Notes: generated by a model not told the origin, from the sequence alone. A DNA stretch of 64,000 bases from Solirubrobacteraceae bacterium (GCA_016463765.1 JAEMQS010000017.1:10168-74167), one strand, 5' to 3'; shown: positions 5,207 to 38,290, numbered from the stretch's first letter. A program made the numbers and translations.

Positions 5207-6544
5207 ATGGCCGATCTTCCGAAGACCACCGAGGACGTCAAGGCGCTCGTCCAGGAGCACAACATCCGGTTCATCCGGCTCTGGTTCACGGACATCCTCG
5301 GTCAGCTGAAGTCCTTCTCGATCAACGCGGAGGAGCTCGACGACGCGTTCGAGGGCGGGATGGGCTTCGACGGCTCCTCGATCACCGGCTTCAACGCCAT
5401 CGAGGAGTCCGACATGATCGCCATGCCGGACCCGACGACCTTCGCGCTGCTGCCGTGGCGTCCCGAGGAGCAGGGTGTCGCGCGCATGTTCGCCGACGTC
5501 CAGACGCCCGAGCGCACCCCGTACGAGGGCGACCCGCGCCATGTCCTGCGTCGCGCGCTCGAACGGGCGAAGTCGATGGGCTTCGACACCTTCAACGTCG
5601 GGCCCGAGCTCGAGTACTTCCTCTTCAAGGACAAGAACGGCACCGAGGTGCTCGACGAGGGCGGCTACTTCGACCTCACGACGCTTGACGCCGGCTCTGA
5701 CGTTCGCCGCGAGACCGTTCTCGCCCTCGAGCAGCTCGGCATCCACGTCGAGTACAGCCACCACGAGGTCGGCCCGTCGCAGCACGAGGTCGACATGCGC
5801 TACGCCGACGCCATGAAGATGGCCGACGACTGCATGACCTACCGCATCACGGTCAAGGAGTACGCGCTGAAGTACGGCTGGCACGCGACGTTCATGCCCA
5901 AGCCGCTGTTCGGCGAGAACGGCTCGGGCATGCACACGCACATGAGCCTGTTCAACGGCGGCAAGAACGCGTTCTTCGACGCCGACGACCCGTACTTCCT
6001 CAGCGACGTGGGCAAGGCGTTCATCGCCGGCCAGCTGCGCCACGCACGCGAGATGAGCTCGATCTTCGCCCAGTGGGTCAACTCCTACAAGCGTCTGGTC
6101 CCGGGCTACGAGGCGCCGGTGTACGTGGCGTGGTCGCGCCGCAACCGCTCCGCGCTGGTGCGCGTGCCGCTGTACCACCCCGGCAAGGAGCAGACCACGC
6201 GGATGGAGCTGCGCTGCCCGGACCCGGCGTGCAACCCGTACCTGACGTTCGCGGTGCTGCTGCAGGCCGGCCTGGAGGGCATCGAGAAGGGCTACGAGCT
6301 GCCCGAGCCGATGGAGAAGAACCTCTACCACCTGGCCCCCGACGACCGGAAGCGGCTCGGCATCGAGCAGCTCCCGGAGACCCTCGGCGAGGCAATCGAG
6401 CTGACCGCCGAGAGCGAGCTCGTCCTGCGGACGCTCGGCGAGCACATGTTCAACCGCTACGTCGAGATCAAGCGCCAGGAGTGGGAGGACTACCGCGTGC
6501 AGGTCACGCAGTGGGAGCTCGATCGGTATCTGCCCGTCCTCTGA
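5207..6544 (+). CDS. glnA: Glutamine synthetase type I (GSI-alpha-like)
   Basis: FDGSSI, EESDM, GPELEYF, HHEVGPSQHE, TFMPKP, NGSGMH, NSYKRLVPGYEAP, ELRCPDPACNPY. Confidence 0.95.
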   Translation: MADLPKTTEDVKALVQEHNIRFIRLWFTDILGQLKSFSINAEELDDAFEGGMGFDGSSITGFNAIEESDMIAMPDPTTFALLPWRPEEQGVARMFADVQTPERTPYEGDPRHVLRRALERAKSMGFDTFNVGPELEYFLFKDKNGTEVLDEGGYFDLTTLDAGSDVRRETVLALEQLGIHVEYSHHEVGPSQHEVDMRYADAMKMADDCMTYRITVKEYALKYGWHATFMPKPLFGENGSGMHTHMSLFNGGKNAFFDADDPYFLSDVGKAFIAGQLRHAREMSSIFAQWVNSYKRLVPGYEAPVYVAWSRRNRSALVRVPLYHPGKEQTTRMELRCPDPACNPYLTFAVLLQAGLEGIEKGYELPEPMEKNLYHLAPDDRKRLGIEQLPETLGEAIELTAESELVLRTLGEHMFNRYVEIKRQEWEDYRVQVTQWELDRYLPVL

Positions 6545-19510: not shown

Positions 19511-20938
19511 ATGAGACGCACCGTGTCGTACCGCTGCACCCTCAGAGGCGAGACCTTCACCTTCGCGGATCTCCGCGAGCTGCTGGCCAAGGCCAACGAG
19601 GAGAAGTCCGGCGACGCGCTGGCGGGCATCGCCGCGAGAAGCGCCACCGAGCGGGTCGCGGCGAAGCTGGCGCTCGCTGACGTGCCGCTGCGTGAGATCG
19701 CGGACACGCCGCTCATCGACGACGACGTCACGGCGCTCATCGCCGACACCCACGACCGCGCGACGTTCGACCGCGAGTTCGCGTCGCTGACCGTCGGGGA
19801 GCTGCGCGAGCTCGTGCTCGGCCGCGCGTTCGCCGCCCGCTGGACCGACGAGGGGCTGGCGCGTGCGCTCACGCCTGAGATCGCCGCGGCGGTGGCGAAG
19901 CTCATGGGCAACAAGGACCTCGTCGTGGCCGCCGCGCCGCTGCGGACGATCACACGCCTGCGCAACACCATGGGCCAGCCGGGGGTACTGGCGGTGCGCG
20001 TGCAGCCCAACCACCCGTCCGACGCCGTCGAGGGCGTGCTGCTCTCGGCGATCGACGGCCTGCTGTTCGGCTGCGGCGACGCGATGCTCGGGCTCAACCC
20101 GGTCGACGACGGCGTGGACAGCGTCGCCTCGGTCCTCGGCGGCCTGCAGGACCTCATCGGCCGGCTCGGGGTGCCGACGCAGAGCTGCGTGCTCGCGCAC
20201 ATCACGACGCAGCTGGAGGCCATGCGCCGCGGCGCGCCCGTCGACCTGCTGTTCCAGTCGATCGCCGGGACGCAGGGCGCGAACGCGAGCTTCGGGGTCA
20301 CGCTCGACCTGCTGGCCGAAGGGCGCGAGGCGGTGGTCGCTCACCACGCCGAGCGCGAGGAGACGTTCATCGGCGAGCACGTCATGTACTTCGAGACCGG
20401 GCAGGGCAGCGCGCTGTCGGCCGGCGCCCACCACGACGTCGACCAGCTCACAATCGAGGCGCGCGCCCACGGCGTCGCCCGCGCGTATGACCCGTTCCTC
20501 GTCAACACGGTCGTCGGCTTCATCGGGCCCGAGTACCTCGCCGACGCGCGACAGATCAATCGCGCCGGTCTCGAGGACCACTTCATGGGCCGGCTGCTCG
20601 GCCTGCCGATGGGCTGCGACGTCTGTTACACCAACCACGCCGACGCCGATCAGAACTCCAACGACGACCTGCTCATGCTGCTGGCGATGGCGGGCTGCCA
20701 GTACGTCATGGGGATCCCGGGCAGCGACGACGTGATGCTCAACTACCAGTCGACGAGCTACCACGACGTCGCCGCGGTGCGCGAACTGCTCGGCCTGCGG
20801 CCGGCGCCGGAGTTCGAGGCATGGCTGGCCGAGATGGGCCTGTGGGCCGACGGTGGTCTCACCGGCGGCGACGGGCCGGTCCTCGACACCGCCGCCCGTG
20901 CCGTGGCCGAGGCCGCTCCGCGGGAGCTGCCCGCGTGA
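19511..20938 (+). CDS. eutB: Ethanolamine ammonia-lyase large subunit
   Basis: KSGDALAG, RVQPNHP, QSCVLAHIT, YFETGQGSALS, NTVVGFIGPEY, GCDVCYTNH, LNYQSTSYHD. Confidence 0.96.
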   Translation: MRRTVSYRCTLRGETFTFADLRELLAKANEEKSGDALAGIAARSATERVAAKLALADVPLREIADTPLIDDDVTALIADTHDRATFDREFASLTVGELRELVLGRAFAARWTDEGLARALTPEIAAAVAKLMGNKDLVVAAAPLRTITRLRNTMGQPGVLAVRVQPNHPSDAVEGVLLSAIDGLLFGCGDAMLGLNPVDDGVDSVASVLGGLQDLIGRLGVPTQSCVLAHITTQLEAMRRGAPVDLLFQSIAGTQGANASFGVTLDLLAEGREAVVAHHAEREETFIGEHVMYFETGQGSALSAGAHHDVDQLTIEARAHGVARAYDPFLVNTVVGFIGPEYLADARQINRAGLEDHFMGRLLGLPMGCDVCYTNHADADQNSNDDLLMLLAMAGCQYVMGIPGSDDVMLNYQSTSYHDVAAVRELLGLRPAPEFEAWLAEMGLWADGGLTGGDGPVLDTAARAVAEAAPRELPA

Positions 20939-21690
20939 CCGGGGAGGCGCTCACCACGCAGGACGACGTGCGCGCGCTGCTGACCCGGCGCGCACGCGAG
21001 GTCACACCCGCGCGGATCTTCACCGGGGGTCCCGAGGGCGGCTACACGACGACCGACCTGCTCGCCCTGCGCGCCGATCACGCAGCCGCGCGCGACGCGG
21101 TGCTGGCGCCGCTGGATCTCGCCGATCCCGCGCTGGCCGACATCGCGGCGCGCCACGCGGTGTTCGCGGTGGACTCGCAGGCCGGGAGCATCGAGGAGCA
21201 CCTGCTGCGCCCGGACCTCGGCCGGCGCCTCTCCGACGCCGGGCGCGCGGCGATCACCGCGGCGTGCACGCCCGCCACCGATGTGCAGATCGTCATCGGC
21301 GACGGACTCTCCGCCGCCGCGGTCCACGCCCAGGTGCCGACGCTGCTGCCATTGCTCGTCGCCGAGTGCCGGCAGCGCGGCTGGACGGTCGGCCGCCCGT
21401 TCGCCGTCCGGCACTGCCGGGTCGGCGTGATGAACGACGTGGGGGATGCCCTGGACCCGGCGGTCGTCGTCCTGCTCGTCGGGGAGCGGCCCGGCCTGGC
21501 GACCGCGGAGAGCCTGTCGGCCTACCTCGCCTATCGCCCGAGGCCCGGGGACACCGACGCCAAGCGCGACCTGATCTCGAACATCCACGCGCGCGGACTG
21601 ACGACCGAGGAGGCCGTGCGTCGCATCGGGGACCTCATCGCCGAGCAGCGCGCGCTGCGCGGCAGCGGCGTCGCCGCGCGCTCGGCCTAG
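20935..21690 (+). CDS. eutC: Ethanolamine ammonia-lyase small subunit
   Basis: TPARI, DHAAARDAV, LLRPDLGRRL, DGLS, GERPGL...ESLSAY, SNIH; GTGA overlap with eutB. Confidence 0.95.
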   Translation: MTGEALTTQDDVRALLTRRAREVTPARIFTGGPEGGYTTTDLLALRADHAAARDAVLAPLDLADPALADIAARHAVFAVDSQAGSIEEHLLRPDLGRRLSDAGRAAITAACTPATDVQIVIGDGLSAAAVHAQVPTLLPLLVAECRQRGWTVGRPFAVRHCRVGVMNDVGDALDPAVVVLLVGERPGLATAESLSAYLAYRPRPGDTDAKRDLISNIHARGLTTEEAVRRIGDLIAEQRALRGSGVAARSA

Positions 21691-24108: not shown

Positions 24109-24351
24109 TCAGGCGGGGAGGACTTCCCCGGAGTAGAGCTTGTGGATCTTCACGGTGCCCGCGGGCGCCGCATCGATGCACAGCCCGCAGAGCACGCACT
24201 CGTCGATGTTCTCCTCGACGATGTCCACGCCGGACTCGGTGCCCTTGAAGATGTTCACGGGGCAGACCTCGTCGAGCTTGGCGCCCATGGCGGCATCGGA
24301 GGCGACCCTGTCGTCGACCTCGACGCCGATGAAGATGGCGTCCTTCTTCAT
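24109..24351 (-). CDS. Ferredoxin-like protein (one 4Fe-4S site)
   Basis: EVCPVNIF and ECVLCGLC; ATGA-coupled to the ligase alpha gene. Confidence 0.82.
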   Translation of the reverse strand: MKKDAIFIGVEVDDRVASDAAMGAKLDEVCPVNIFKGTESGVDIVEENIDECVLCGLCIDAAPAGTVKIHKLYSGEVLPA

Positions 24352-25274
24352 GCCGCGCTCCTCTCAGCGATCTTGGCCTTCACGAGGTCGGGGATCTCGT
24401 CGATCCGCTCCACGACGGGGATGCCGGCCTCCTGGAGGCGGGCGATCTTCTCCGTCGCGCTGTCTTCCTTGCCTTCGACGATCGTGCCGGCGTGCCCGAA
24501 GGACATGCCCTGCATCTCCTCGTCGTCCATGAACTTGCCGGCCATGAAGGCGATGATCGGCAGGCGCGAGTTGTTCTCCTTCACCCACGCGGAGAGCTGG
24601 GCCTCCATGCGGCCGCCCGGCTCGGTGTAGATGACGATGGCCTCGGTCTGCGGGTCGGCCTCGAAGTACGGCATGAGCTCCGCGTACGTCGAGCCGATGA
24701 TCGCGTCGCCGCCGATCGAGACCGCCGTGGAGACGCCGAGGCCCGCGGCCGTCAGCGTCGAGGAGATCTCCGTCGTCATGCCGCCGGAGCGGCTCATGAC
24801 ACCGACCGAACCCGGCTGGTAGGCCTGCTCGGCGTTCTTCGCCGGACCGCCGATGCCGCCCATCTTCGCGACGCCGGGGACGATGAGCCCCAGGCAGTTC
24901 GGGCCGATGATGCGCGCGCCCTGCTGGTCGGCGAACTCGACCATCGCGGCGACGTCGCGGCGCGGGATGCGCTCGGTGACGATGACGATGGTCTTGATGC
25001 CCGCGTCGAGCGCCTCGATGACCGCGTCCTTCGTGCCGGCGGGCGGCACGGTCACGACCGAGCCGTCCGGGACGACGCCGCCGTTGTGCTCCACGACCTG
25101 CTCGACGGTGTCGAAGACCGGCACGCCGTGGACCTCGCGGCCCTTGCGGCCGGGGGTCACGCCGCCGACGATCTTCGAGCCGTAGTCCAGGCACTCACGC
25201 GTGAGGTTGACCGCCTCGCGCCCGGTGATGCCCTGGATGATGAACGTCGTGTTCTCGTCGATGAGGATGCTCAT
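24348..25274 (-). CDS. ADP-forming CoA ligase alpha subunit (SucD/MtkB-like)
   Basis: QGITGRE, GGVTPG, IIGPNCLG, SRSGG, IGGD, phospho-His FGHAG; ATG 25274. Confidence 0.88.
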   Translation of the reverse strand: MSILIDENTTFIIQGITGREAVNLTRECLDYGSKIVGGVTPGRKGREVHGVPVFDTVEQVVEHNGGVVPDGSVVTVPPAGTKDAVIEALDAGIKTIVIVTERIPRRDVAAMVEFADQQGARIIGPNCLGLIVPGVAKMGGIGGPAKNAEQAYQPGSVGVMSRSGGMTTEISSTLTAAGLGVSTAVSIGGDAIIGSTYAELMPYFEADPQTEAIVIYTEPGGRMEAQLSAWVKENNSRLPIIAFMAGKFMDDEEMQGMSFGHAGTIVEGKEDSATEKIARLQEAGIPVVERIDEIPDLVKAKIAERSAA

Positions 25275-26491
25275 GCGGCGACCTCTCCCTGGATCTTGGC
25301 CACCGCGCGGCCCGCGGCGTCCCACAGGGAGACGGAGCGGTCGCAGTACTCGATGCCGTACTTGTCGAGGATCTTGAAGCCCTCGTCCTCCCAGGCGCCC
25401 GGGATGCGGAAGATGGCGATGGTCTCGCCCGGGTCCTTGCCCAGCTCGAGGCACGCCTTGATGACGCCGCGCGCGACGATGTCGACGCGGGTGTTCGAGA
25501 CGATCGACATCATCACCGCGATCTTCTCGACGCCGTCCTTCTGCAGGACCTCCTTGGCGAGGCCGCAGGCCTTCGCGACCGACGGGTTGCCGCCGATCTC
25601 GGAGTAGTTCGCGGGCTTGCCGCCCTGCTGGCGGACCGCGTCGGTCAGCGTCAGCGAGCCGCCACCGGCGCCGATGACGAGGCCGATGTTGCCGTGGAAG
25701 CCGGTGTCCTTGCCCTGGATGACGCCGCGGTGGTCGGCGGCGTCGATGGCCTTGACGGCCTCCTCGAACGGGGTGGGGGTGTGACCCTCGCGGGTGCCCT
25801 CCTCGGCCCCGATGCCCAGCGCCTTGATGAGCGCCTTCTGGCGGGGCATGCCCTCGTCCTCCATCTCCATGTGCGCGTCGAGCGCGACGAAGGAGCCGTC
25901 GGTCAGCTCGGCCAGCGGGTTGATCTCCGCGAGCAGCATGTCGCCCTCGAGGAACAGCCGCGCGAGGCGGGCCAGCACCGGGGTGAGGCGCTGCAGCGGC
26001 TTGCCGGTCACGCCCGCCGCGGCGATGACCTGCTTGGCCTGGAAGTCATGGAACGGCTCGAGGGCGGAGAAGTGCCCCCGGCCGACGTGGTCGGGATGGT
26101 CCTCGGCGACCTGCTCGATGTCGATGCCGCCCATGTCGCTGAAGAGCATCAGCGGCTTCTTGGCGGTGCCGTCCCAGACGACGCCGGCGTAGTACTCCTG
26201 CTTGACCTCGGCCTTCGGGTCGACCAGGACGCCACGCGGCCAGTGGCCGTTGATCTCGAGCTGGAGGATGTCCTCGGCGTGCTGCCGGGCCTCGTCGGGC
26301 GTGTCGGCGAACTTGACGCCGCCGGCCTTCATCCGTCCTCCGGTGAGGACCTGGGACTTGATGACCGTGGGCCCGCCGATCCGCTCGGCGATCGTCTTGG
26401 CCTCGGCCGCGTCGGTGGTGAACCCGTAGTCGGTGACCGGGATGCCCGCGCGCTTGACGATCTCGCGGGCCTCATATTCAAAGAAGCGCAT
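25271..26491 (-). CDS. ADP-forming CoA ligase beta subunit (SucC/MtkA-like, divergent)
   Basis: MRFFEYEA, IKSQVLTGGRMKAGGV, GGIDIE, EINPL, PANYSEIGG; ATG 26491. Confidence 0.88.
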   Translation of the reverse strand: MRFFEYEAREIVKRAGIPVTDYGFTTDAAEAKTIAERIGGPTVIKSQVLTGGRMKAGGVKFADTPDEARQHAEDILQLEINGHWPRGVLVDPKAEVKQEYYAGVVWDGTAKKPLMLFSDMGGIDIEQVAEDHPDHVGRGHFSALEPFHDFQAKQVIAAAGVTGKPLQRLTPVLARLARLFLEGDMLLAEINPLAELTDGSFVALDAHMEMEDEGMPRQKALIKALGIGAEEGTREGHTPTPFEEAVKAIDAADHRGVIQGKDTGFHGNIGLVIGAGGGSLTLTDAVRQQGGKPANYSEIGGNPSVAKACGLAKEVLQKDGVEKIAVMMSIVSNTRVDIVARGVIKACLELGKDPGETIAIFRIPGAWEDEGFKILDKYGIEYCDRSVSLWDAAGRAVAKIQGEVAA

Positions 26492-26567
26492 GCGGCCGCG
26501 AACCGTAGCTGAGAGCCGGTGCCTGACGCCGTGCGGTCGAACCCCCTGTCTGCTTGAATTTTCTCGC

Positions 26568-28547
26568 GTGAAGCCTCCCCGTCCCCGGCGCGCCGCCCTC
26601 GCGGCCGTGCTGGCTCTCCTCACAGCACTGGGGATCGCTGCGCCGGCGTCTGCCGCGACGTCGTTCGGCCTGAACATCCAGAGCCTCGTCAACTGGGACG
26701 TGCAGTGGACGAGCGGGGCCGGCCCCGCGTGGGAGCCGTTCGTCGCCGCGATGGCGCGCGACGGGATGACGGTGGCTCGCACGGATGCCGCCTGGTCGCG
26801 CGTGCAGCCGAACGGGCCGGGCGACACTCCGGACTGGACCGTGACCGACCGGATCGCGCGGACGCTCGCCCAGCACGGCATCCGCTGGCTGCCCGTGGTC
26901 GACCTCGCGCCCGCGTGGTCGCAGGAGGCGGCGAACCCGCGGCCGGGCTGCGCGCCCCTCGGTCCGCGCTACCTGCCGCCGAAGCCCGAGCACTACGACG
27001 AGTTCGCCGGGTTCGCCGGGCTGCTCGCCGCGCGCTATGGCGACGGCGGAGCGTTCTGGGCTGCCAATCCGGACCTGGCCCCGCGGCCGATCACGCACTA
27101 CGAGATCTGGAACGAGCCGAACGTCGACGCGTACTGGAACAACCACGTCAACCCGGCGCAGTACCGCGCGCTGTACGACCAGGCGCGCGCGGCCATCAAG
27201 GCGGCTGACGCCGACGCGCAGGTCCTCGTCGGCGGCGTCGTGTGGGGCGGCCAGGTCGACTGCACGGTGCAGACGAACGACGCGCAGTGGCTCCAGGCCC
27301 TGGTGCGTGACGGCGGCCCGGGGTGGCAGACCGACGGCATCGCGATCCACCCGTACGGACCGGCGGCGGTGAACATCGTGGTGAACGTCCGGCGGATGCA
27401 GCGCGCCCTGGCCGCGGTCGGTCGTGGCGATGTCCCGCTCGAGCAGACCGAACTCGGCTGGGCACTGCGGCCCGGCGACGCGACACCCGGGTCGGCGGCA
27501 GCTCGCGACGACGGCTGGTTCCCGGAGCCCACCAGGGCGGCGAACTTCGCGCTGGTCACGGACATGCTCCAGGCCGCCGACTGCCGGCTGGGTGACCAGT
27601 ACGGCTACGCCGTCGTCGAGCGCGAGCGTCTGCTGCTCGAGCCCCCACCCGGGGTCACGAATGTGTTCGACCTCATGGAGCACTGGATGGGCATCTACCC
27701 GGCGACCGCGCCCGGAGCGGAGACGGTGACGAGCCGTGCGTACGCGGCAGCGATCGCCCGCGACCGCGCGGCGGGTGGCGCGACGCGCGATGTGCGCGTG
27801 TGCGGCGCAGACCCCTCCCCGGGCCGGACCATTCCCATCGACCTTGCGACGACACCGGCCGGGACGGGGTGCTGGGACGCGACCGTCACGTACCTCGGCC
27901 TGCCCGTCCGGGAGGCGCAGCTCATCGGGTCACCCGCCGTGCTGGCGCCGACCGGCGCCGACACCGTGTTCACGGGTATGGACGGCAGCGCGCGCTTCTG
28001 TGCGACCGCCGTCGGGGAGCTGCGCGTGCACGCCCAGATCGGGGCCGGCGCGTACGCGGCGGACTTCGCGCCGCTCGTGGCCCGCTCGGCTGAGACCGCG
28101 CTCGGGGCCACGGAGCTCCCTCCCGTCCTGACCCCGCCGGTGCCTCCCGCGGGGACGCCGCCGCAGCCGGTGCCCGCGTGCGTCCTCGGCCAGCTCGGGC
28201 TGCCGGCACAGCGGCTGAGCACCGTCGCCCGGCGCGGCCGGCTGACCACCCGGGTGCGCCTGTCGACGCTCGCGCCGACCGGGCCGTGCCAGACGACGCT
28301 GACCGTGTCGATCCCGGTCAAGACGACACGCCGGGGCAAGAAGCCGCGGGTCACCCAGGCGCTCCTCGGGACCGCGCGCGCCACGATCGGCTCGACCTCG
28401 CAGCAGACCGTCGTAGTCCGCCTGACGACGGCGGGACGCAAGCGCCTGCGGCGCGAGCGGTCGGTGCGCGCGACGGTCCGGATCGGGTTGCCGCAGGCCG
28501 TCGGCGGCTCGCAGGACTACGCGCGCGAGATGCGCCTGCGCAGGTGA
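26568..28547 (+). CDS. Secreted clan GH-A glycoside hydrolase (GH39/GH5-like) with basic C-terminal domain
   Basis: Signal peptide from GTG 26568, YEIWNEPN acid/base, AIHPY, TELGW nucleophile, Pro linker. Confidence 0.8.
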   Translation: MKPPRPRRAALAAVLALLTALGIAAPASAATSFGLNIQSLVNWDVQWTSGAGPAWEPFVAAMARDGMTVARTDAAWSRVQPNGPGDTPDWTVTDRIARTLAQHGIRWLPVVDLAPAWSQEAANPRPGCAPLGPRYLPPKPEHYDEFAGFAGLLAARYGDGGAFWAANPDLAPRPITHYEIWNEPNVDAYWNNHVNPAQYRALYDQARAAIKAADADAQVLVGGVVWGGQVDCTVQTNDAQWLQALVRDGGPGWQTDGIAIHPYGPAAVNIVVNVRRMQRALAAVGRGDVPLEQTELGWALRPGDATPGSAAARDDGWFPEPTRAANFALVTDMLQAADCRLGDQYGYAVVERERLLLEPPPGVTNVFDLMEHWMGIYPATAPGAETVTSRAYAAAIARDRAAGGATRDVRVCGADPSPGRTIPIDLATTPAGTGCWDATVTYLGLPVREAQLIGSPAVLAPTGADTVFTGMDGSARFCATAVGELRVHAQIGAGAYAADFAPLVARSAETALGATELPPVLTPPVPPAGTPPQPVPACVLGQLGLPAQRLSTVARRGRLTTRVRLSTLAPTGPCQTTLTVSIPVKTTRRGKKPRVTQALLGTARATIGSTSQQTVVVRLTTAGRKRLRRERSVRATVRIGLPQAVGGSQDYAREMRLRR

Positions 28548-28998: not shown

Positions 28999-29039
28999 CC
29001 CGATGAGAGTAGGGGCCCCGGAACGATATGGTTGTACGG

Positions 29040-29303
29040 GTGAAGACAACCGTAGAGCTGTCTGATGACCTCCTCAAGCGGGCCAAGCGGCTCGCCGTGG
29101 AGCGCGGGACGACGCTGCGCGAGCTCATGGAAGCGGGGCTGCGCCGCGAGCTGCGCGAGCGCGAGCGCCCGCTCGCGGCCTTCACCATCGAGCCGTGGGG
29201 CGACCCCGACGAGCCGATCCCGGCCGACGTGCTCGCCCGCGAGCTGCACGGACCGCGTGCGGACCGTGAGCACGGTGACCTCGAGCGGCGGCTCGGCCAG
29301 TGA
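29040..29303 (+). CDS. vapB: VapB-like RHH antitoxin
   Basis: KTTVELSDDLLKRAK...TLRELMEAGLR; GTGA overlap with vapC. Confidence 0.85.
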   Translation: MKTTVELSDDLLKRAKRLAVERGTTLRELMEAGLRRELRERERPLAAFTIEPWGDPDEPIPADVLARELHGPRADREHGDLERRLGQ

Positions 29304-29728
29304 TCGCCCTGGATACGAACATCCTCGTCTACGCGCACCGCGCCGATGCACCGGAGCACGAACGTGCGGTCCGCGCCGTCGAGGGGCTTGCCTCGGACGG
29401 CGCGGCGTGGGGCCTGCCCTGGCCCGTGGTGCACGAGTTCGTGAAGGTCATGACCGGGATCTCGTGGCGGCCCGCGCCGCTGGAGGTGGCCCTGCGGATG
29501 GCGAGCCGCCTGCTCGATGCGCCGGGGTGCATCGCGCTCGCCGAGGGCTCCGATCATCTGGCGCGCCTGGAGTCGCTGGCGGCTCCCGCCAACGCCGTCG
29601 GTCCCCTGATCTACGACGCCCGGATCGCGGCGATCTGCCTCGACCACGCGGTCTCCGAGCTGTGGACCGCCGACCGCGACTTCGGCCGCTTCCCGCAGCT
29701 GCGCGTGGTCAACCCGCTCGTGGGCTGA
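29300..29728 (+). CDS. vapC: VapC PIN-domain toxin
   Basis: LDTNILVYA, VVHEF, YDARIAA, WTADRDFGRF. Confidence 0.93.
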   Translation: MIALDTNILVYAHRADAPEHERAVRAVEGLASDGAAWGLPWPVVHEFVKVMTGISWRPAPLEVALRMASRLLDAPGCIALAEGSDHLARLESLAAPANAVGPLIYDARIAAICLDHAVSELWTADRDFGRFPQLRVVNPLVG

Positions 29729-30311
29729 TGCCCGCGAAGCGCCCGGCGTAGAACAGCAGCGGGTCGCCGTCGCGGTGGACCATGTGCTCGACGCGGCCGA
29801 TCCACAGCACGTGGTCGCCGGCCGGGTGCACGTCGGTCACCCGGCAGCCGAGCTGGGCCAGCGAGCCTGCGACGAACGGCAGGTTGCCCTCCCAGTGAAA
29901 CCGCGGCGCGCCCGTGAGCGTGTGCTGGCCGGCGAAGTGCGCGGCGACGTCCTGCTGCTCGGCGGTCAGCACGCTGATGCCGTAGCGGCCGGTGCGCGGC
30001 AGGATCTCCGCCATCCGGCAGCGGCCGAGGGAGACGAGGACCAGCGGCGGATCGAGCGACACCGACAGGACGCCGTTGGCCGTCATGCCGTGGACGCCCT
30101 CGTCGGGGTCGGCCGTCGTGATGACCGTGACGCCGGTGGCGAAGCGACCCATCGCGTCGCGCAGCCGGCGGGGTGCGGTCGAGCGCGAGGTCGGCGTCAG
30201 TGCCGCCATGCCGGCGGACGTCACGTTGACGGGTGTGCCCGAGCGCGCCCGGCCGGCGGTGCGCGAGCGCGCGGGCGTGGTGCCGTGGCCGAGCTTCGCC
30301 GTGCGCTTCAT
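29709..30311 (-). CDS. Flavin reductase (HpaC/DIM6-NTAB family)
   Basis: RDAMGRFATGVTVIT, GMTAN, SVSLDPPLV, GDH, PLLFYAGRF; ATGA-coupled to tdm. Confidence 0.92.
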   Translation of the reverse strand: MKRTAKLGHGTTPARSRTAGRARSGTPVNVTSAGMAALTPTSRSTAPRRLRDAMGRFATGVTVITTADPDEGVHGMTANGVLSVSLDPPLVLVSLGRCRMAEILPRTGRYGISVLTAEQQDVAAHFAGQHTLTGAPRFHWEGNLPFVAGSLAQLGCRVTDVHPAGDHVLWIGRVEHMVHRDGDPLLFYAGRFAGISPRAG

Positions 30312-32623
30312 GCCCGCGGCCGCCGCTTGTCGGGGTCGTAGAACGGGACCGCCGTCACGGTGGCGTCCAGGGTCCGCCGGCGCCCCTCGGCACGCTGCAC
30401 GGTGAGCGCGGCGCCGTCGTTCGCGTGCTGGACGGCCACCCGGGCGAGCGCGACCGGCGCGCGGCGGTGGGGGGAGACGACGGCGCTGGTGACGACACCG
30501 ACGTCGCGGCGCCCGGCCAAGACGGCGTCGCCGTGGGCGGGTGCCTCACCGCCGTCGAGCAGCAGTCCGACGAGCTGCTCGCGCGGGTGGTCGCGCCGCT
30601 CGATGAGCGCGTCGCGGCCCGTGAAGTCCTCGCCGTCGAGTGCGACGGTGAAGCCGATCCCCGCCTCGTACGGGTCCTCGCCGTTGCCGAACTCGTGGCC
30701 CGCGAGAATGAGCCCGGCCTCGACACGCAGCAGCTCCAGCGCGTCGAGCCCGAGCGGCGCGATCCCGTGGTCCGCGCCCGCGTCGAGGACCGCGTCCCAG
30801 ACCGCCTCGCCATCGCGGGGATGGCAGAAGACCTCGTAGCCCAGCTCGCCGGTGTAACCCGTGCGCGAGACGACGACCGGGACGCCCTGCGGCCCGCCGA
30901 TCCGCCCGACGAGAAAGCGGAACCAGCGCAGGTCGGCGAGGTCGGGCTGGGTGGGGGAGGACCAGACGACCGACGTGAGCAGGTCGCGGCTGCGGGGACC
31001 CTGGATGGCGAGGTTGTGCAGGTCGTCGGTGGCGGCCTTGATCCACACCCGCTCGAGGCCATGGCGCTCCGCGGTCTCGCGCAGCACCAGCTCGTCGGTG
31101 TCGCAGCCCCCGATGAACCGCCAGTTGTCCTGGCCCAGGCGGAACACCGTCGCGTCGTCGACCATCGCCCCGGTCTCGTCGCACACCGCCGTGTAGGAGA
31201 CCTGGCCGACGGCGATCCGCCGGGCGTCGCGCGTGATGGTGCGCTGGATGAGCGTCTCGGCGTCGGGCCCGACGACCTCCCACTTGCGCAGCTGCGAGAG
31301 GTCCATCACCGCGACACGCTCGCGGCACGCCAGGTACTCGGCGGTCGCACCGTGGCCGTGGAAGCGCTCGGGCAGCCAGAAGCCGCCGCCGCCGTCCGTC
31401 ATGTCCGCACCCAGCGCGCGAACCCGCGCGCCGAAGGCCGAGTCGGTCGTCATGCGGGGTGGCAGCTCGATGTCCGGCCGATGCGCGATCGCGACGCTGA
31501 AGCGGTGCTCGGGGCGATAGACGCGGACGTGCACGTCGGTCACCTCCCATCCGTTGGAGGGGTCGATGTCGTCGGGGCAGGCCGACGACGCGCAGACGAG
31601 GTCGTCGAGCGCGCGCAGCAGGACGTGGTCGCCGGGCCGCGACCACGGCTCGTCGCCGACCAGCAGGTGCGATGCGTCGAAGGCCGTGTTGTAGAAGAGG
31701 TTCAGCGCGGGCCAGCCGCCGCGCGGCGCGATGCCCCACGGCGCGAGGACCCCGTTGAAGTTGTCGGTGCAGTTGACGTGGCCGGGGTAGCCGAGGTCCT
31801 CGTAGTAGCGCGCCGTGCACGCCAGGGCGAAGGTGTCGTGCCGGCCCACCGTGTCCTGCACGACCTCGATGAGCGGCAGCAGGTCGGTGTCGAAGAACTT
31901 GCCGCGCAGCCCGGGTTCGGGGTAGGCGCGCCCGGTCATCGAGCGGGTCGCCGTCGCATCGAGACCGCGCTCGATGCCGTCTTCCAGCTTCCCGCGTGCG
32001 AAGGCGACGAAGTCCGAGCACTGGCGCCCGGCGACGTCGATGATCTGGATGTATTCCCCGGCCTGGACGGTGTAGTCGCGAGCGGTGGCGGCGTCGACGC
32101 GCAGCTCCAGGCGCGGCTCGGCCAGCGGGGGCGGCAGCTCGGCCTCCTCCCGCACGGCGGGCGCGGCGCGGTGCAGCTGCAGCAGCAGGTCCGGCGCGTC
32201 GGGCTCGCCGGTCTCCGGCGCGGCGACGACGAGCACGGCGTCGCGGGCGGCGACGGCGGCGAAGACCGGGTCGAGGGTCAGCCGCGCCGACCGCGCCGCG
32301 TGCAGGTCGGCGCCGCCGGCGTGCAGCGTTCGCGCGAACGCACCGCCGTCCGATCCGGCCAGCGCCCGCAGCAGCCCGGCCGGGCCGTCGGGCGCCAGGC
32401 CCAGCGCGTCGAACGCCTCGACCCCGGCGTGGTCGATGAGCGTGACCTCGACGGCGCGCCCGCCCTGCGGGTCGACGAGCTCGACACGGTCGTCGCCGCG
32501 CAGCGCCACCGCCGTCGCCCCGCCCGGCCGCACCCAGAACGACTCACGCTCGCGGCGCACCGCGAGCAGGCCGTCGCTCGCCAGCGGCGCTCCCGGTCCG
32601 GCGATCGCGTCGATCGCGGCCAC
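30308..32623 (-). CDS. tdm: Trimethylamine N-oxide demethylase (DUF1989 + GcvT folate-binding domains)
   Basis: GEYIQIIDVAGRQCSDF, QDTVGRHDTFALAC, YPGHVNC, EPWSRPGD, SSACPDD, then GcvT motifs (DLSQLRK, SRTGYTGELGYE, LRVEAGL, PFYDP). Confidence 0.85.
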   Translation of the reverse strand: MAAIDAIAGPGAPLASDGLLAVRRERESFWVRPGGATAVALRGDDRVELVDPQGGRAVEVTLIDHAGVEAFDALGLAPDGPAGLLRALAGSDGGAFARTLHAGGADLHAARSARLTLDPVFAAVAARDAVLVVAAPETGEPDAPDLLLQLHRAAPAVREEAELPPPLAEPRLELRVDAATARDYTVQAGEYIQIIDVAGRQCSDFVAFARGKLEDGIERGLDATATRSMTGRAYPEPGLRGKFFDTDLLPLIEVVQDTVGRHDTFALACTARYYEDLGYPGHVNCTDNFNGVLAPWGIAPRGGWPALNLFYNTAFDASHLLVGDEPWSRPGDHVLLRALDDLVCASSACPDDIDPSNGWEVTDVHVRVYRPEHRFSVAIAHRPDIELPPRMTTDSAFGARVRALGADMTDGGGGFWLPERFHGHGATAEYLACRERVAVMDLSQLRKWEVVGPDAETLIQRTITRDARRIAVGQVSYTAVCDETGAMVDDATVFRLGQDNWRFIGGCDTDELVLRETAERHGLERVWIKAATDDLHNLAIQGPRSRDLLTSVVWSSPTQPDLADLRWFRFLVGRIGGPQGVPVVVSRTGYTGELGYEVFCHPRDGEAVWDAVLDAGADHGIAPLGLDALELLRVEAGLILAGHEFGNGEDPYEAGIGFTVALDGEDFTGRDALIERRDHPREQLVGLLLDGGEAPAHGDAVLAGRRDVGVVTSAVVSPHRRAPVALARVAVQHANDGAALTVQRAEGRRRTLDATVTAVPFYDPDKRRPRA

Positions 32624-32629
32624 GTTCGT

Positions 32630-34024
32630 CTACGCGGCCGCGGTGTCCGCCGCCTCGGCCAGGAGCTGCTCGGCCAGCGCGCGCTTGCCATCGGCGTCAA
32701 GCTTCTTGATCTCGTTCTCGACCGCCCGCCGGTTGTACGTCTGGTTCCAGTAGTCCAGCGCGTCGAAGCCCAGCAGGGCAGCCTTGCCGACGAACTGGCG
32801 CAGCACCTCGTTCGTCGGGCCCATGACCCAGCCGGCCTTCGCGTCGCGGAGGTACCGCTCGAGCTCCATGTCGCCGCGCTTGTAGCCCGTGCCGCCGCAG
32901 GCGTGCAGCATCTTGTCGACGACGTGCGCGGTGTTCTTCGCCGCGATGAACTTGATCTGCCACGACCAGTGCAGGAACCCCGCGCGGGCGAACTCGCCGA
33001 CCGCCAGCTCCTTCGTGTTGCCGTCGGTCGCCTCGTCCATGGCCTGGGCGACGCTGAACGTGAACAACCGGGCGGCGTTCGTGTCCATGATCGCCTCGCC
33101 GACGTAGTCCTGGATCGTCGGGTAGTCGGCGACGCGCAGGCCGACGTCGGCGTGGCGCTTGCGCGTGGTCTGGCGCTTGGCGATGTCGATCGCGCCCATC
33201 GCCAGGCCGTTCCACACCGACGAGGAGCCGATGAGGAACCACGGGTCCACTGACTCGTCGTTCGACGCCGCGCCGTCACCGACCGGCCCGACGATGCGGT
33301 CGGCGCCCAGCTCGGCGCTCGGCACCTCCAGCGGGCCGGACTGGTTGCCGCGCAGGCCCATCGCGTCCCAGGTCGCGGGCTTGGCCTCGGCGTCCTCGGC
33401 GTCGACGACGAAGACGGAGAGGTCGTCGTAGCCGCTGAAGTCCGGCGATGTCGTCTGCACGACGTAGAAGTCGGCAAAGCCCGCCGAGGTCGTCCACGAC
33501 GCCTTCTTGTGGACCGTGAAGCCGCCGTCGGGCAGCCGCTCGGCACCGGAGCTGATCGGGTACCAGAAGTGCGATCCGGTCTCCGGGTCGGAGTACGACA
33601 GCGTGCCGAGCTTGCCCTCGTTCAGCGGGCGGATGTACCGGTCGATCAGCTCGGGTGTCGGGCGGAACATGATCGCGTTGACCGCGCCCATGTGCATGAC
33701 GTAACACATGGCCGTCGACGCGCAGCCGTACCGCGCGATCGTCTCGCAGACCATCGCGAAGCAGACGTGGTCCTGCCCGAGTCCGCCGTACTCCTCGGGC
33801 ACGGTCAGGGCGAGCAGCCCCAGTTCGGAGCCCAGCAGCTCGAGGTTCTCGCGGGGATAGACCAGGCCGTCGTCGGAGACCTTCGCGTTGTCGCGCAGCT
33901 TGGTCTCGCACAGCGCGATCAGCTTCGCGCGCAGCTCCTGCTGGTCCTCGGTCAGGACCCAGTCCGGGTCCCAGTCGTAGCCGAGCCCCCAGAACGGGGC
34001 GGCGCCCCACATCTTCTCCGTCAT
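32630..34024 (-). CDS. ACAD-fold flavoprotein, probable two-component monooxygenase (catalytic Glu absent)
   Basis: VPEEYGGLG, CASTAM, SDPETGSH, WDAMGLRGNQSG, LERYLRDAKAGWVMGPT; ATG 34024 overlaps the dmmC stop. Confidence 0.8.
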   Translation of the reverse strand: MTEKMWGAAPFWGLGYDWDPDWVLTEDQQELRAKLIALCETKLRDNAKVSDDGLVYPRENLELLGSELGLLALTVPEEYGGLGQDHVCFAMVCETIARYGCASTAMCYVMHMGAVNAIMFRPTPELIDRYIRPLNEGKLGTLSYSDPETGSHFWYPISSGAERLPDGGFTVHKKASWTTSAGFADFYVVQTTSPDFSGYDDLSVFVVDAEDAEAKPATWDAMGLRGNQSGPLEVPSAELGADRIVGPVGDGAASNDESVDPWFLIGSSSVWNGLAMGAIDIAKRQTTRKRHADVGLRVADYPTIQDYVGEAIMDTNAARLFTFSVAQAMDEATDGNTKELAVGEFARAGFLHWSWQIKFIAAKNTAHVVDKMLHACGGTGYKRGDMELERYLRDAKAGWVMGPTNEVLRQFVGKAALLGFDALDYWNQTYNRRAVENEIKKLDADGKRALAEQLLAEAADTAAA

Positions 34025-35013
34025 GCGGCGGTCGCTCCCAGGGTCGCGTTGCGCTCGGCCAGCCACTGCACCGTCATGTCGCGGTAGCGGGCCAGGCCCT
34101 TGTAGTCGGTCAGGTCGTCGGGCAGCGAGGCCAGCACGCGCTCCAGGCGCATCGACCACGCCGGGACGGTGCAGAGCTCGTCGAGCGAGATGAGATACGT
34201 GCGGATCGGGAACATCACCGCGTTGCTGCGCGGCAGCCGCACGAAGTGCTGGACCTCGACGCGCAGGTGCAGCCGGGGGCCGATCTCGTCGTACGTCAGC
34301 GACGCGCGGTCCGGGCCCCACTCGGGGTAGACCTCGGTCACGGTGTCCAGCCGCCGGCCGACGGTCATCGTCCAGTTCGTGCGGCGGAAGTTCTGCCCGG
34401 CGCGCAGGCCCAGCAGGAACGTGTGGGCGCGCTGGAAGACGCCGAGCTCGTGGGCGCGCGGCACCGGCCCGTGGATCTCCAGGAAGCTCATGCCCAGGTC
34501 GAAGTCCAGCGACCAGTCCGCGCCGAACGTGAGGATGCCCGCGTCGACGTACAGCGCGTCCCCGCGGTGGTCGAGTAGCTCGATGTCCTCCTGGACCTGG
34601 CGCATCATCCAGTGGAAGGGCTCCTCGGGCAGCGTGTCCTCCACCCCGGGCGTGAAGACCTGCTCGAGGTCGAGCAGCCGGTTGGTCCAGCGCACCTCGC
34701 CGCCGCGCTCCTCGCGGGAGAACCAGTCCGGGTAGTCGGTGGCCATCGAGGTGGTCGCGTGCTCGACGACGTCCCACGCCGCCTCGCGCATGTGCGGCAG
34801 CACCTGACAGCGCAACGGGTCGCGGGCCAGGATCTCGTTGCGCAGCGCGATCTCGTCGCGGTAGTGCTCGCAGACGTCGTAGACCCGTCCGCCCCAGCCC
34901 GCCATCCCGTTGTCGCGGACCTGGTCGGCCGGCTCCACGTTCGTGGAGTACATGTACGTGTCCTGGTCGAACGGAAACGGGAAGTGGGCGATCGCGTCGG
35001 GGCTGTTGGCCAT
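34021..35013 (-). CDS. dmmC: Heme-dependent dimethylamine monooxygenase / N-demethylase alpha subunit (DUF3445)
   Basis: FPFPF..D.Y.YSTNVEP, QVQED, DWSLDFDLGMSFLEIHGPVP, RRTNWT, HLRVEVQ, LPRSNAVMFPIRTY. Confidence 0.9.
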   Translation of the reverse strand: MANSPDAIAHFPFPFDQDTYMYSTNVEPADQVRDNGMAGWGGRVYDVCEHYRDEIALRNEILARDPLRCQVLPHMREAAWDVVEHATTSMATDYPDWFSREERGGEVRWTNRLLDLEQVFTPGVEDTLPEEPFHWMMRQVQEDIELLDHRGDALYVDAGILTFGADWSLDFDLGMSFLEIHGPVPRAHELGVFQRAHTFLLGLRAGQNFRRTNWTMTVGRRLDTVTEVYPEWGPDRASLTYDEIGPRLHLRVEVQHFVRLPRSNAVMFPIRTYLISLDELCTVPAWSMRLERVLASLPDDLTDYKGLARYRDMTVQWLAERNATLGATAA

Positions 35014-35026
35014 GGATGGGCTCGTG

Positions 35027-35977
35027 TCAGAGGTCGAGGACGAGGGGCCCGCGCGCGCAGCGCGAGACGCAGGGCATGAGCGCGGAGCCGTGCTCCTCCG
35101 CGGGGAGGAAGATGTCGCGGTGGTCGGGCGTGCCGTCGACGATCGGCGTGCGGCACTCGCCGCAGATGCCCTGCCGGCACAGGTACGGGATCTCGATGCC
35201 GCGGTCCTCGAGCGCCTCGAGCAGGGTCAGCTCCGCAGGGACCTCGATGACCTCGTCGGTGCTGGCCAGGCGCACGCTGAACGGCAGGCGCGGGGCCTCG
35301 TCGAGCGCGAAGCGCTCGAGGTGCAGCCGGCTCTCGGGCCAGCCCAGCTCGCGCGCGAGGCCGAGCACGGCGTCCATCATCGGCGCGGGCCCGCACACCG
35401 ACAGGTGCGTGCCCAGCGGCTGTCCCGCAAGGCGCTCGCGCAGTCCCGCGAGCACGGCGGTGCCATCGTCGTCGACGTACGTGCTCAGTGCCCCGGGGCT
35501 CGCCGCCGCCAGGTCGTCCAGGAGCGCCGCGTGCTCGGGCCCGCGGAACGCGTAGTGCAGTTCGAACGGCACGCCGTCCCGTGCGAGCGCGTGGGCGTAG
35601 GCGACGAACGGCGTCACGCCGATGCCGCCTGCCACCAGGACGTGCCGGGTGGCCGCCCGGTCGGGCGCGAAGAGGTTGTGAGGCGGCTCGATTTCGATGA
35701 CGTCGCCCCAGCGGACACGCTCGTGCATGCCGACCGATCCGCCGCGGCCCTCGTCGATGCGGCGCACGGCGATCCGATAGCGGTCCTGTTCCCATGGGGA
35801 GGACGCCAGGGAGTACGGGTTCTTGCGCACGCGGTCCTCGCCGGGAACATGGACCACCACGTGGCTGCCCGGCGAGAACGGCGGCAGCGGCGTGCCGTTG
35901 AGCGGCACGAGATCGAACGCGCGGATCTCGGGCGTGAGTTCCGTGATCTCGGCGACGCGCACCTTGATGGTGGTCAC
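35027..35977 (-). CDS. dmmB: PDR/VanB-type FMN/2Fe-2S reductase (dimethylamine monooxygenase reductase)
   Basis: NPYSL, GRGGS, AGGIGVTP, VCGP, CRQGICGEC...CVSR; GTGA overlap with dmmA. Confidence 0.88.
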   Translation of the reverse strand: MTTIKVRVAEITELTPEIRAFDLVPLNGTPLPPFSPGSHVVVHVPGEDRVRKNPYSLASSPWEQDRYRIAVRRIDEGRGGSVGMHERVRWGDVIEIEPPHNLFAPDRAATRHVLVAGGIGVTPFVAYAHALARDGVPFELHYAFRGPEHAALLDDLAAASPGALSTYVDDDGTAVLAGLRERLAGQPLGTHLSVCGPAPMMDAVLGLARELGWPESRLHLERFALDEAPRLPFSVRLASTDEVIEVPAELTLLEALEDRGIEIPYLCRQGICGECRTPIVDGTPDHRDIFLPAEEHGSALMPCVSRCARGPLVLDL

Positions 35978-36498
35978 GGCCACGCCACCTCCGGCTCGGG
36001 GAGTTCGCCCGGCGCCTCGGCGTCGGCCTGGAAGCCGAGGTACGCGCCGTGGCGCCTGGAGAAGTGGTGGAAGACCTCGAGCGTGCGCCCGCAGCCGGCG
36101 CACGGCGCGACCGTGGTCGTGACGTCCTCGGTGACGGTCCGGCAGTGCGAGCACCAGACCCGGCGGGCAGCCGACGCGGTCACGGCGGTCTGCAGCTCGT
36201 CGTCGAGGATCCCGGCGGCGTGCGCGACGGCGGCGGTCGCCCGGACGAAGCCATCGTCGCCGGCGAGATAGACCCGGACGCCGACCTGGGCCTCGGCCAA
36301 CAGCGTGCCGAGCTTGTCGAGCACCGCGGCGGTGCCGGCGGTGCCGGTGTGCAGCAGCGTGACGTCGCGGCCGGCCGACCGCGCGTCGGCGAGCAGCTGC
36401 TCGACCTCGGGGCCGAGCGGACCGGCGACGACGACGTGGCGCACCCCGGACGGATCGAACGTCAGCGACCCGTCCTTCGGCAGCGTCGTGTGCTCCAT
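35974..36498 (-). CDS. dmmA: Dimethylamine monooxygenase subunit DmmA
   Basis: RVWCSHCR...CAGCGR.LEV.HHFSRRHGAYLGF; position before dmmB-dmmC. Confidence 0.85.
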   Translation of the reverse strand: MEHTTLPKDGSLTFDPSGVRHVVVAGPLGPEVEQLLADARSAGRDVTLLHTGTAGTAAVLDKLGTLLAEAQVGVRVYLAGDDGFVRATAAVAHAAGILDDELQTAVTASAARRVWCSHCRTVTEDVTTTVAPCAGCGRTLEVFHHFSRRHGAYLGFQADAEAPGELPEPEVAWP

Positions 36499-36552
36499 GG
36501 AGACCCCGTACGGCATCACCGCACATGCTCGATGGCGGGCCACCGGCATCCC

Positions 36553-36946: not shown

Positions 36947-38290
36947 TCAGCGCTCAGGCGCCGCGGGGACGGTGGGGCTCGGGGCGGCGGCGGCCGAGCC
37001 GTTGCGGCCCACCGTCGACGGGATGCCCTCCGGGTACGGCACAGAGGGGACCTCGGCGAGGTCGAGGCCCATGACCTCGGCGTGCGCCGGCACCCGCAGG
37101 ATGCCCGCCTTCTTCAGGACCCAGGCCAGCACGTAGCCGGGGATGAAGCCGAGGGCGATGAACGCCACCATGCAGACCGCCTGGCCGTACAGGGTCGTGT
37201 CCGGGCCGACGACGTTCGGGTAACCCCAGGCGAAGATGCCGCAGGCCAGCAGCGACCAGGCGCCACACACGCCATGGACCGACACGGCGCCGACGGCGTC
37301 GTCGATGCCGAACCGCTCGATGAGCCGGCCCGAGTACGGGATCAGGAAGCCGCCGATGATGGCGATCAGGAACGCCAGCCCCGGGTAGTAGACGTCCAGG
37401 CCCGCACCCGCCGAGATGACGCCGGCGAGTCCGCCGGAGATCGTCCAGAACGGCTCGCCCTTCGACGCGATGTACGCGCCGATGATGCCGCCGGCCAGCG
37501 CCATGAGCGTGTTGAACACGAAGGCCGACATGTTCGTCGGGGTGCCGTAGATGGTGTTGAAGCCCTCGCCGGTGTAGATCAGGCAGCCCATGAGGAAGCC
37601 GAAGAAGCCGACGAAGATCAGCATGAGCCCGAGCATCGCGAGCGGCAGGTTGTGCGGCTTGATCGTGACGGCCCGGCCATCGGCGTCGAACCGTCCGATG
37701 CGCGGTCCGAGATGGATCAGCACGCCGAGCGTGAACGCACCGGCGATGAGGTGGACACAGCCCGCGGCGCCGACGTCATGCAGGCCGAACTCGGTGAGCA
37801 TCCAGCCCGCCGGGTGCCAGCCCCACGCCGCCCCGATGATCCAGACGACCGAACCGAGGAAGGTCGCGAGGATCAGGAAGGCGCTCACGCGGACGCGCTC
37901 GATGAGCGCACCGGACATGATCGACGCCGTCGTGGCGGCGAAGAGCGCGAAGGCGCCCCAGAAGACACCGCTGGCGGCGTCCTGGAGATTCGGCCCCATG
38001 TTCGCGCTCCACGGCAACGCGCCCTTGGCGAGCTCGTCGAGTCGCGGAACACCGGTCGGCATCGCGTTGTAGAGGAACCACCCGACGAAGAAGAACGACG
38101 GGATGACGACCGCGAGGGCCAGCAGGTTCTTCATGGAGGCGGCGAGCACGTTCTTCACGCGCGACGCCCCGCTCTCATACGCGAGGAATCCTGCGTGGAT
38201 GACCAGCATCAATGCGATGCTCATCCAGTAGAAGAACTCCATGTTGACGGCGTTGATGGTGTCCAACGCCTCTGTGACCTCTGGAGTCAC
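36947..38290 (-). CDS. amt: Amt-family transporter, probable methylamine permease
   Basis: GTG 38290 after AGGAGG; IMSGALIER, HDVGAAGCVH, LGPRIGRF, PHNLP, IDDAVGAVSVHG, EVMGLD. Confidence 0.9.
   Translation of the reverse strand: MTPEVTEALDTINAVNMEFFYWMSIALMLVIHAGFLAYESGASRVKNVLAASMKNLLALAVVIPSFFFVGWFLYNAMPTGVPRLDELAKGALPWSANMGPNLQDAASGVFWGAFALFAATTASIMSGALIERVRVSAFLILATFLGSVVWIIGAAWGWHPAGWMLTEFGLHDVGAAGCVHLIAGAFTLGVLIHLGPRIGRFDADGRAVTIKPHNLPLAMLGLMLIFVGFFGFLMGCLIYTGEGFNTIYGTPTNMSAFVFNTLMALAGGIIGAYIASKGEPFWTISGGLAGVISAGAGLDVYYPGLAFLIAIIGGFLIPYSGRLIERFGIDDAVGAVSVHGVCGAWSLLACGIFAWGYPNVVGPDTTLYGQAVCMVAFIALGFIPGYVLAWVLKKAGILRVPAHAEVMGLDLAEVPSVPYPEGIPSTVGRNGSAAAAPSPTVPAAPER

Follow-up and report, generated by a model that had tools for sequence, protein, structure and literature searches.

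An acyl-CoA dehydrogenase-fold protein and a flavin reductase as a candidate trimethylamine monooxygenase in place of Tmm in a Solirubrobacteraceae bacterium

Introduction

Trimethylamine (TMA) can be degraded by way of trimethylamine N-oxide (TMAO), dimethylamine (DMA) and monomethylamine (MMA), a route described in the available text of PMC5520151 and PMC13390433. Which enzyme forms TMAO where the known one, Tmm, is absent? The question is raised by a 64,000-nucleotide stretch of DNA from a Solirubrobacteraceae bacterium (GCA_016463765.1 JAEMQS010000017.1:10168-74167), here called the window, with positions counted from its first letter. It encodes the TMAO demethylase Tdm and the dimethylamine monooxygenase Dmm, and between dmmC and tdm lies a gene for a protein of acyl-CoA dehydrogenase (ACAD) fold; tdm is followed by a flavin reductase gene. 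An earlier sequence-only reading had proposed that the ACAD-fold protein is a TMA monooxygenase non-homologous to Tmm or, alternatively, acts on MMA. We suggest, from sequence comparison and genomic context, that it probably forms with the reductase a two-component flavin monooxygenase, which would oxidize TMA to TMAO for the adjacent Tdm and so replace Tmm. That it is a two-component flavin oxygenase, whatever its substrate, we hold with considerable confidence. The clade to which it belongs is real, widespread and uncharacterized; no description of it was found in the literature searched, which comprised few subscription papers and no supplements. The three genes are:

32630..34024, minus strand: ACAD-fold flavoprotein of 464 residues without the catalytic Glu, candidate TMA N-monooxygenase (oxygenase component); four ACAD Pfam domains
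30308..32623, minus strand: TMAO demethylase Tdm, 771 residues, GTG start; DUF1989 plus GcvT (GCV_T)
29709..30311, minus strand: HpaC/StyB-type NAD(P)H:flavin reductase, 200 residues, likely the reductase component; PF01613 (Flavin_Reduct)

Co-occurrence with tdm and tmm

Phylogenetic profiling, proposed in the sequence-only reading, was carried out on an even sample of 401 Actinomycetota genomes. The ACAD-fold protein and the Tdm model match the same 11 genomes, from five families, and neither is found in the other 390. The ACAD gene is directly upstream of tdm in 11 of 11 cases (this genome and ten found with the Tdm model). Tmm is present in none of the 11 Actinomycetota with both genes and in one of the 401 overall, in a genome that has neither the ACAD-fold protein nor tdm. 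A scan of GTDB gave 434 stretches encoding relatives of the ACAD-fold protein, and the best 80 loci were examined for neighbors within 10 kb. Among these 80, tdm is present in 78 (the two misses are at a contig edge), a flavin reductase in 72 (immediately next door or at a distance of a few kb, on either strand), and dmmC in two. Named bacterial members also occur in Alpha- and Gammaproteobacteria, Cyanobacteria and Acidobacteriota. Tmm was found in none of 50 genomes picked from the GTDB loci for long contigs and spanning the listed taxa, with the Corynebacterium glutamicum control detected.

On plasmids, tdm occurs in 137 records and tmm in 139, with similar tdm and tmm counts for Rhizobium (94 and 95), Acinetobacter (20 and 22) and Paracoccus (10 and 9) when compared by genus and not record by record. 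The ACAD clade is absent from them (best ACAD hit, 33%), and in Paracoccus aminovorans tmm occupies the slot directly upstream of tdm. A distant branch of the clade, about 64% identical, is represented by 80 metagenome loci, many on short contigs; a Geminicoccaceae member falls in the cluster of the query used for this branch. These loci contain tdm in 33 cases and a reductase in 41, and tmm and dmmC in none; where 3 kb is available on both sides, tdm is present in 15 of 20. The exact co-occurrence of the ACAD clade with tdm, the absence of Tmm from every ACAD genome tested and the presence of plasmid tdm with tmm thus support the predicted non-homologous TMA monooxygenase.

The surroundings of some loci differ. 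At L143, L170 and L125, the clade member is flanked on each side by at least 3 kb of sequence that contains no tdm and no reductase gene; these may be orphan or repurposed copies. In one distant branch (L140, L144-L150, L152, L166-L172), a cold-shock-like ORF and an ammonia-lyase-like gene precede the reductase-ACAD pair, often with a hydroxymethyltransferase-like gene after it, all labeled by sequence appearance. A PhyH-family dioxygenase gene directly follows tdm in 16 of the 80 GTDB loci and in five of ten sampled genomes (for example L031:13753-14619; also L103, L106, L107, L109 and L110).

Family, motifs and fold

The motifs named in the sequence-only reading are found in the ACAD-fold protein, SDPETGSHFWYP at residues 145-156 and RDAKAGWVMGPT at residues 393-404. 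In the alignment, SDPETGSH stands where solved ACADs have SEREAGSD, and G402 occupies the J-K loop position (YEG motif) of their catalytic Glu. An alignment of 113 proteins of the family and its sister group (20 actinobacterial, 22 animal, 28 from the sister group and 43 other) has no Glu at this position. In helix G, VDPWF aligns with LDHTR of solved ACADs, and positions 261-263 are Pro, aromatic and Phe throughout the bacterial members; by its numbering, we take this to be the site of the alternative Glu and the conserved Arg of IVD and LCAD. Both catalytic Glu sites are therefore lost, as had been claimed. His111, R393 and D394 are invariant in all 113 proteins; of the FAD motifs, GGxG and Arg290 are preserved. 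The clade has specific conserved acidic or aromatic positions (D146, H152, W154, E257, D260, F263, W353 and W399). A Trp-rich N-terminal extension sets it apart from the sister group.

The AlphaFold model (pLDDT 95.2) has the three-domain ACAD fold and superposes on 4kto with a Z score of 50.4 and an rmsd of 1.6 over 373 residues. Only ordinary ACAD-family entries, and no group D flavin monooxygenase, are among the fold matches listed, which does not exclude group D. The bacterial protein has no NAD(P)H-binding domain of its own, as judged by Pfam domains and the model. Its best NCBIfam match is Rv1679/FadE16 (NF049984; 208 of 600 bits), and it does not match the Tmm model, NF058570. Names from the ESM Atlas are only automatic ACAD or DszC labels. 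The nearest named relatives are from Solirubrobacteraceae; the ACAD-fold protein of Svornostia abyssi J379 is 96% identical.

Known group D enzymes (C2-HpaH, HsaA, DszC, MsuC, Dms1-3 and isobutylamine N-monooxygenase) share with the candidate an ACAD fold without the catalytic Glu and a partner flavin reductase, and their oxygenation of heteroatoms is a precedent. The lack of its own NAD(P)H domain and the partner reductase (in 72 of 80 GTDB and 41 of 80 metagenome relatives) match group D. The J-K loop His, which we take to be present in DszC and C2-HpaH and not universal in the group, does not. Profile matches are weak (DszC 44, HsaA 50 and HpaH 32 bits), and the clade differs further in its own N- and C-terminal extensions and in the single-chain fusions of animals. 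A group D member acting on a tertiary amine was not found in the literature searched.

The amino-sugar N-oxygenases DnmZ, KijD3 and ORF36 also combine an ACAD fold with N-oxygenation by external reduced flavin, acting on nucleotide sugars that bear primary amines. The special kinship with them suggested by a C-terminal RDxRAGxxMxP tail found no confirmation. DnmZ matches the whole protein with an E value of 5e-11, behind some 40 ordinary ACAD sequences; its E value for the tail alone is 0.11. Like the clade, the uncharacterized sister group of the Rv1679/FadE16 family (NF049984) has His111 and an RDxxAGxxMxP tail and is without the Glu. The match of the ACAD-fold protein to NF049984 is below the cut-off, and this family and its sister group are 28-38% identical to it and have no terminal extensions. 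One sister protein (33%; L098:6001-7182), on a Methylocystis plasmid, is encoded directly after sfnG and near ssuD, not tdm, and is possibly a further oxygenase of dimethyl sulfide (DMS) or dimethyl sulfoxide (DMSO).

Compared with Tmm, a class B enzyme of the flavin-containing monooxygenase (FMO) type, the ACAD-fold protein has the same predicted reaction and the same slot directly upstream of tdm, but no homology; Tmm is one NADPH-binding chain, whereas the ACAD-fold oxygenase has a separate reductase. The two were never together in the genomes or loci tested. The candidate thus likely works like Tmm without being a member of its family.

The neighboring Tdm matches the solved Tdm 9q59 with an E value of 4e-234 and has D204, C269, H282, C285 and C349, presumably metal ligands, in common with it. 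On NF053776 it scores 1004 bits, and the cut-off is 1100. The reductase has StyB as its best NCBIfam match (142 bits), followed by HpaC types (HpaC, 112 bits), all under cut-off.

Fusions in animals

Among 50% cluster representatives, members of the family fused to FAD_binding_6 and NAD_binding_1 domains turned up in a lobster and an ostracod. Such fusions are carried by further crustaceans (decapods, mantis shrimp, krill, amphipods including Hirondellea gigas, an isopod and barnacles) as well as by Lingula, Owenia, a chiton and stony corals; many of them lie on records of chromosome scale, and paralogs are frequent. Twenty-four of the animal homologs are 37-55% identical to the ACAD-fold protein, and the fused reductase domain is nearest to NADH-cytochrome b5 reductase (E value 1e-44). 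In a FastTree phylogeny of 73 rows, for which long branches are a warning, the clade is separated by a long, fully supported branch, and the animal members are nested in the family (support 100), with one unnamed sequence (support 99). Among the animals the corals group together, as do the barnacles and as do Lingula and Owenia, which speaks against contamination. Because of the long branches we claim no donor or direction of transfer.

The same oxygenase domain is thus accompanied by two unrelated types of reductase, an HpaC-type neighbor in bacteria and a b5-reductase-type fusion in animals, and this is the best evidence that the ACAD-fold domain consumes reduced flavin. A tentative and rather doubtful extension is that the clade as a whole is a second, FMO-independent TMAO synthase found across domains of life. 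In Actinomycetota of soil and fresh water, and in other bacteria, it would begin the breakdown of TMA. In crustaceans (including the hadal Hirondellea), corals, a brachiopod, an annelid and a chiton, where oxygenase and reductase are fused into one self-sufficient chain, it would make TMAO as an osmolyte and piezolyte, a role currently credited to FMOs by default. In the available text of PMC9511220, the TMAO of crustaceans increases with depth and is ascribed to FMOs.

The methylamine route and operon in this genome

The genome of the bacterium is 89% complete. No Tmm was found in it: the best of 13 FMO-like matches reaches 132 of 675 bits on NF058570, tblastn with Paracoccus Tmm gave no hit, and the phylum-wide search with the Tmm model found none here. 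The absence of an FMO-type tmm, noticed in the window by the sequence-only reading, therefore extends to the genome. The 13 matches were rejected as Tmm, the best being nearest to other FMOs. No TMA dehydrogenase was found in the genome; there are two old yellow enzyme matches, of which only the long one (675 residues) was identified, and this is FadH (1ps9, 795 bits). The other is a shorter frame of 412 residues. A Rieske carnitine/betaine oxygenase as a source of TMA was also not found (no PF00848 match), nor was a TmoP-like hit in this genome. The later steps have candidates: DmmD on contig C228 (63%), and on contig C210 GmaS (C210:67595; 513 bits, over the cut-off) beside mgsABC, with soxDAB at 41-46 kb. 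The first step is the sole step of the TMA/TMAO/DMA/MMA route without a known gene in this genome.

The operon runs on the minus strand, 5' to 3', as amt, a 79-residue ORF, dmmA, dmmB, dmmC, the ACAD gene, tdm and the flavin reductase gene. Its first five genes are:

36947..38290, minus strand: amt, channel of Amt fold whose pore motifs are altered, a candidate for methylamine uptake; PF00909, 222 bits
36679..36918, minus strand: small hydrophobic protein of 79 residues, no family match; accompanies the amt gene
35974..36519, minus strand: DmmA; PF22289 and NF041259
35027..35977, minus strand: DmmB, the FAD/NAD/2Fe-2S reductase of Dmm; 44% to Paracoccus DmmB
34021..35013, minus strand: DmmC, heme subunit of dimethylamine monooxygenase; PF11927 (HODM_asu-like), 50% to Paracoccus DmmC

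The positions read earlier from the sequence agree with these coordinates, as do the two ATGA overlaps, dmmC/ACAD at 34024-34021 and tdm/reductase at 30311-30308. The overlap of dmmA and dmmB is GTGA, and 6 bp separate the ACAD stop from the GTG start of tdm. The start codon of dmmA is uncertain, the ORF being extendable to 36561.

The amt product scores below the TIGR00836 cut-off. Both pore His motifs are kept, and the F/Q, W-F-N-S and DFAG motifs are changed with respect to what we assume to be the canonical Amt motifs. The 79-residue ORF also adjoins amt in loci L001, L002, L079 and L219-L221; found together with this protein and dmm, the Amt-fold protein is possibly a methylamine channel. 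On the other side of the operon is a VapBC-like pair (29028-29728, plus strand) made up of a small antitoxin-like ORF and a PIN-domain gene; the PIN gene converges with the flavin reductase gene and overlaps its end by 20 bp. Elsewhere in the window are ethanolamine ammonia-lyase eutB (over the cut-off) followed by a likely eutC (19511-21690, plus strand), about 8 kb from the amine operon, and an alpha/beta pair resembling succinyl-CoA ligase, after which comes a small ferredoxin-like ORF (24109-26881, minus strand; labels by sequence appearance).

Dmm and a DAO-family gene

DmmC is missing from 48 of the 50 ACAD genomes and from all ten sampled tdm genomes. A gene for a DAO-family flavoprotein is present in 29 of the 80 GTDB loci and under 56 of 60 ACAD genome handles, two of which stand for one genome; the handles without it belong to the two DmmC genomes and to two small assemblies. 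It occurs in 46 of the 48 ACAD genomes without DmmC and in none of ten DmmC genomes. These ten, from four genera, were found in a family-wide search of 151 genomes. Six of them (three genera, this genome included) keep the ACAD gene, beside tdm in each of the five checked for it (all but G459); the four without it are also without tdm. The genomes compared are related and incomplete, and represent few independent events. Dmm and the DAO-family gene alternate, and the ACAD gene follows tdm whichever of them is present; it therefore tracks the step before Tdm.

The DAO-family protein (444 residues; L078:467-1801, plus strand, and homologs) has no close known family; no solved relative was found at an E value of 1e-10, and there is a weak SoxB match. 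Frequent companions of its gene are mgsABC and genes for a C26 peptidase and for a GmaS-like ligase of divergent sequence (338 of 470 bits). The protein is a candidate non-homologous DMA demethylase, which would substitute for Dmm.

Alternative functions

Several observations weigh against a TMA monooxygenase in this position. The nearest sequences and folds of the candidate are true acyl-CoA dehydrogenases (Z about 50), and Met401, found in 85 of 85 clade members, stands where the J-K loop His of DszC and C2-HpaH is expected, as judged by motif spacing. The Tdm of this genome is under the curated NF053776 cut-off. Tmm is uncommon among Actinomycetota, which makes its absence, taken alone, weak evidence. 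Counts are not independent, the genomes being related to one another and for the most part incomplete; five of the 20 long loci of the distant metagenome branch lack tdm in the available DNA, and two of the 48 ACAD genomes without DmmC also lack the DAO-family gene. An APC permease distantly like TmoP (195 of 690 bits) occurs in 62 of the 80 GTDB loci, and Tdm could act on imported TMAO. Among the animal carriers are terrestrial and freshwater species, and the substrate may therefore be broader than TMA; given these carriers and the corals, other amines or DMS are allowed as animal substrates.

A two-component oxygenase acting mainly on another tertiary amine or a sulfide, for example DMS or a dimethylamine compound derived from betaine, carnitine or choline, would leave TMA at most a side substrate, with the neighboring Tdm-like enzyme demethylating the N-oxide formed. 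Carnitine dehydrogenase (17 of 80 loci), BKACE (12 of 80) and the PhyH-family dioxygenase fit this proposal, as do the 33% sister beside sfnG and ssuD, the low score of this Tdm and the group D enzymes that oxidize DMS to DMSO, and also DMSO, in the available text of PMC13352529. However, those neighbors are variable and tdm is nearly constant, the ACAD-linked Tdm of ten of ten other sampled genomes is over the cut-off (1151 bits in one relative), and the sulfur-linked sister is by identity outside the clade with its long, fully supported branch; we consider the proposal rather improbable. It is still less probable that the ACAD-fold protein oxidizes DMA in place of Dmm, by N-hydroxylation and loss of formaldehyde, alone or besides TMA. 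The many genomes without DmmC would agree with this role, but the gene here stands beside a complete dmmABC and occurs with DmmC in five more genomes, from three genera in all, and it is the DAO-family gene that alternates with DmmC. A non-oxygenase flavoprotein, either an atypical acyl-CoA dehydrogenase or an amine dehydrogenase, with a reductase that serves something else, has a similarly small chance: ordinary ACADs are the best matches in sequence and structure and some ACAD-fold proteins carry Gly at the Glu site in alignments, yet the protein here retains neither of the Glu sites nor the Arg of helix G, and accompaniment by two unrelated reductases fits the use of reduced flavin, not the export of electrons. 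The MMA alternative, in place of the N-methylglutamate pathway, we regard as very unlikely. It had been raised because gmaS, mgs and mgd were thought to be missing; they are indeed not in the window, where the glutamine synthetase gene (5207-6544) is a type I GlnA and was rejected as gmaS, but gmaS, mgs and mgd-like genes are elsewhere in the genome. With gmaS and mgsABC on C210 the alternative loses its premise, and relatives carry the ACAD gene beside mgs and GmaS-like genes, an mgsC-like gene being within 10 kb in 48 to 53 of 80.

Proposed mechanism

For the oxidation of TMA, the HpaC/StyB-type reductase would, like others of its family, reduce free flavin with NAD(P)H; FAD is favored because StyB is its best match and the FAD motifs of the oxygenase are kept. 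By analogy with group D enzymes, the oxygenase may bind the reduced flavin and form a C4a-hydroperoxyflavin with O2, from which oxygen would pass to the amine nitrogen. N-hydroxylation, including that of isobutylamine, is a group D precedent in the available text of PMC6165268. The conserved residues D146, H152-F153-W154, D256-E257, D260, W262-F263 and W399 probably form a lining that replaces the acyl-CoA-handling residues, and such an acidic and aromatic lining would suit a small methylated amine. By homology, Tdm would then convert TMAO to DMA and a C1 unit, DmmABC with DmmD would convert DMA to MMA, and GmaS, MgsABC and SoxDAB would complete the route.

Implications

Surveys of TMA oxidation count tmm, and if the proposed function is true, TMA oxidizers without tmm are overlooked. 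In the Actinomycetota sample, every tdm occurs with the ACAD-fold protein and none with tmm; Solirubrobacteraceae appear in the available text of PMC12872456 as active degraders of methylated amines in soil. The same comparison singles out the uncharacterized DAO-family gene as a candidate substitute for Dmm, and the animal fusions provide a testable candidate gene for TMAO synthesis in crustaceans. If true, the proposal would also extend group D flavin chemistry to the formation of tertiary amine N-oxides.

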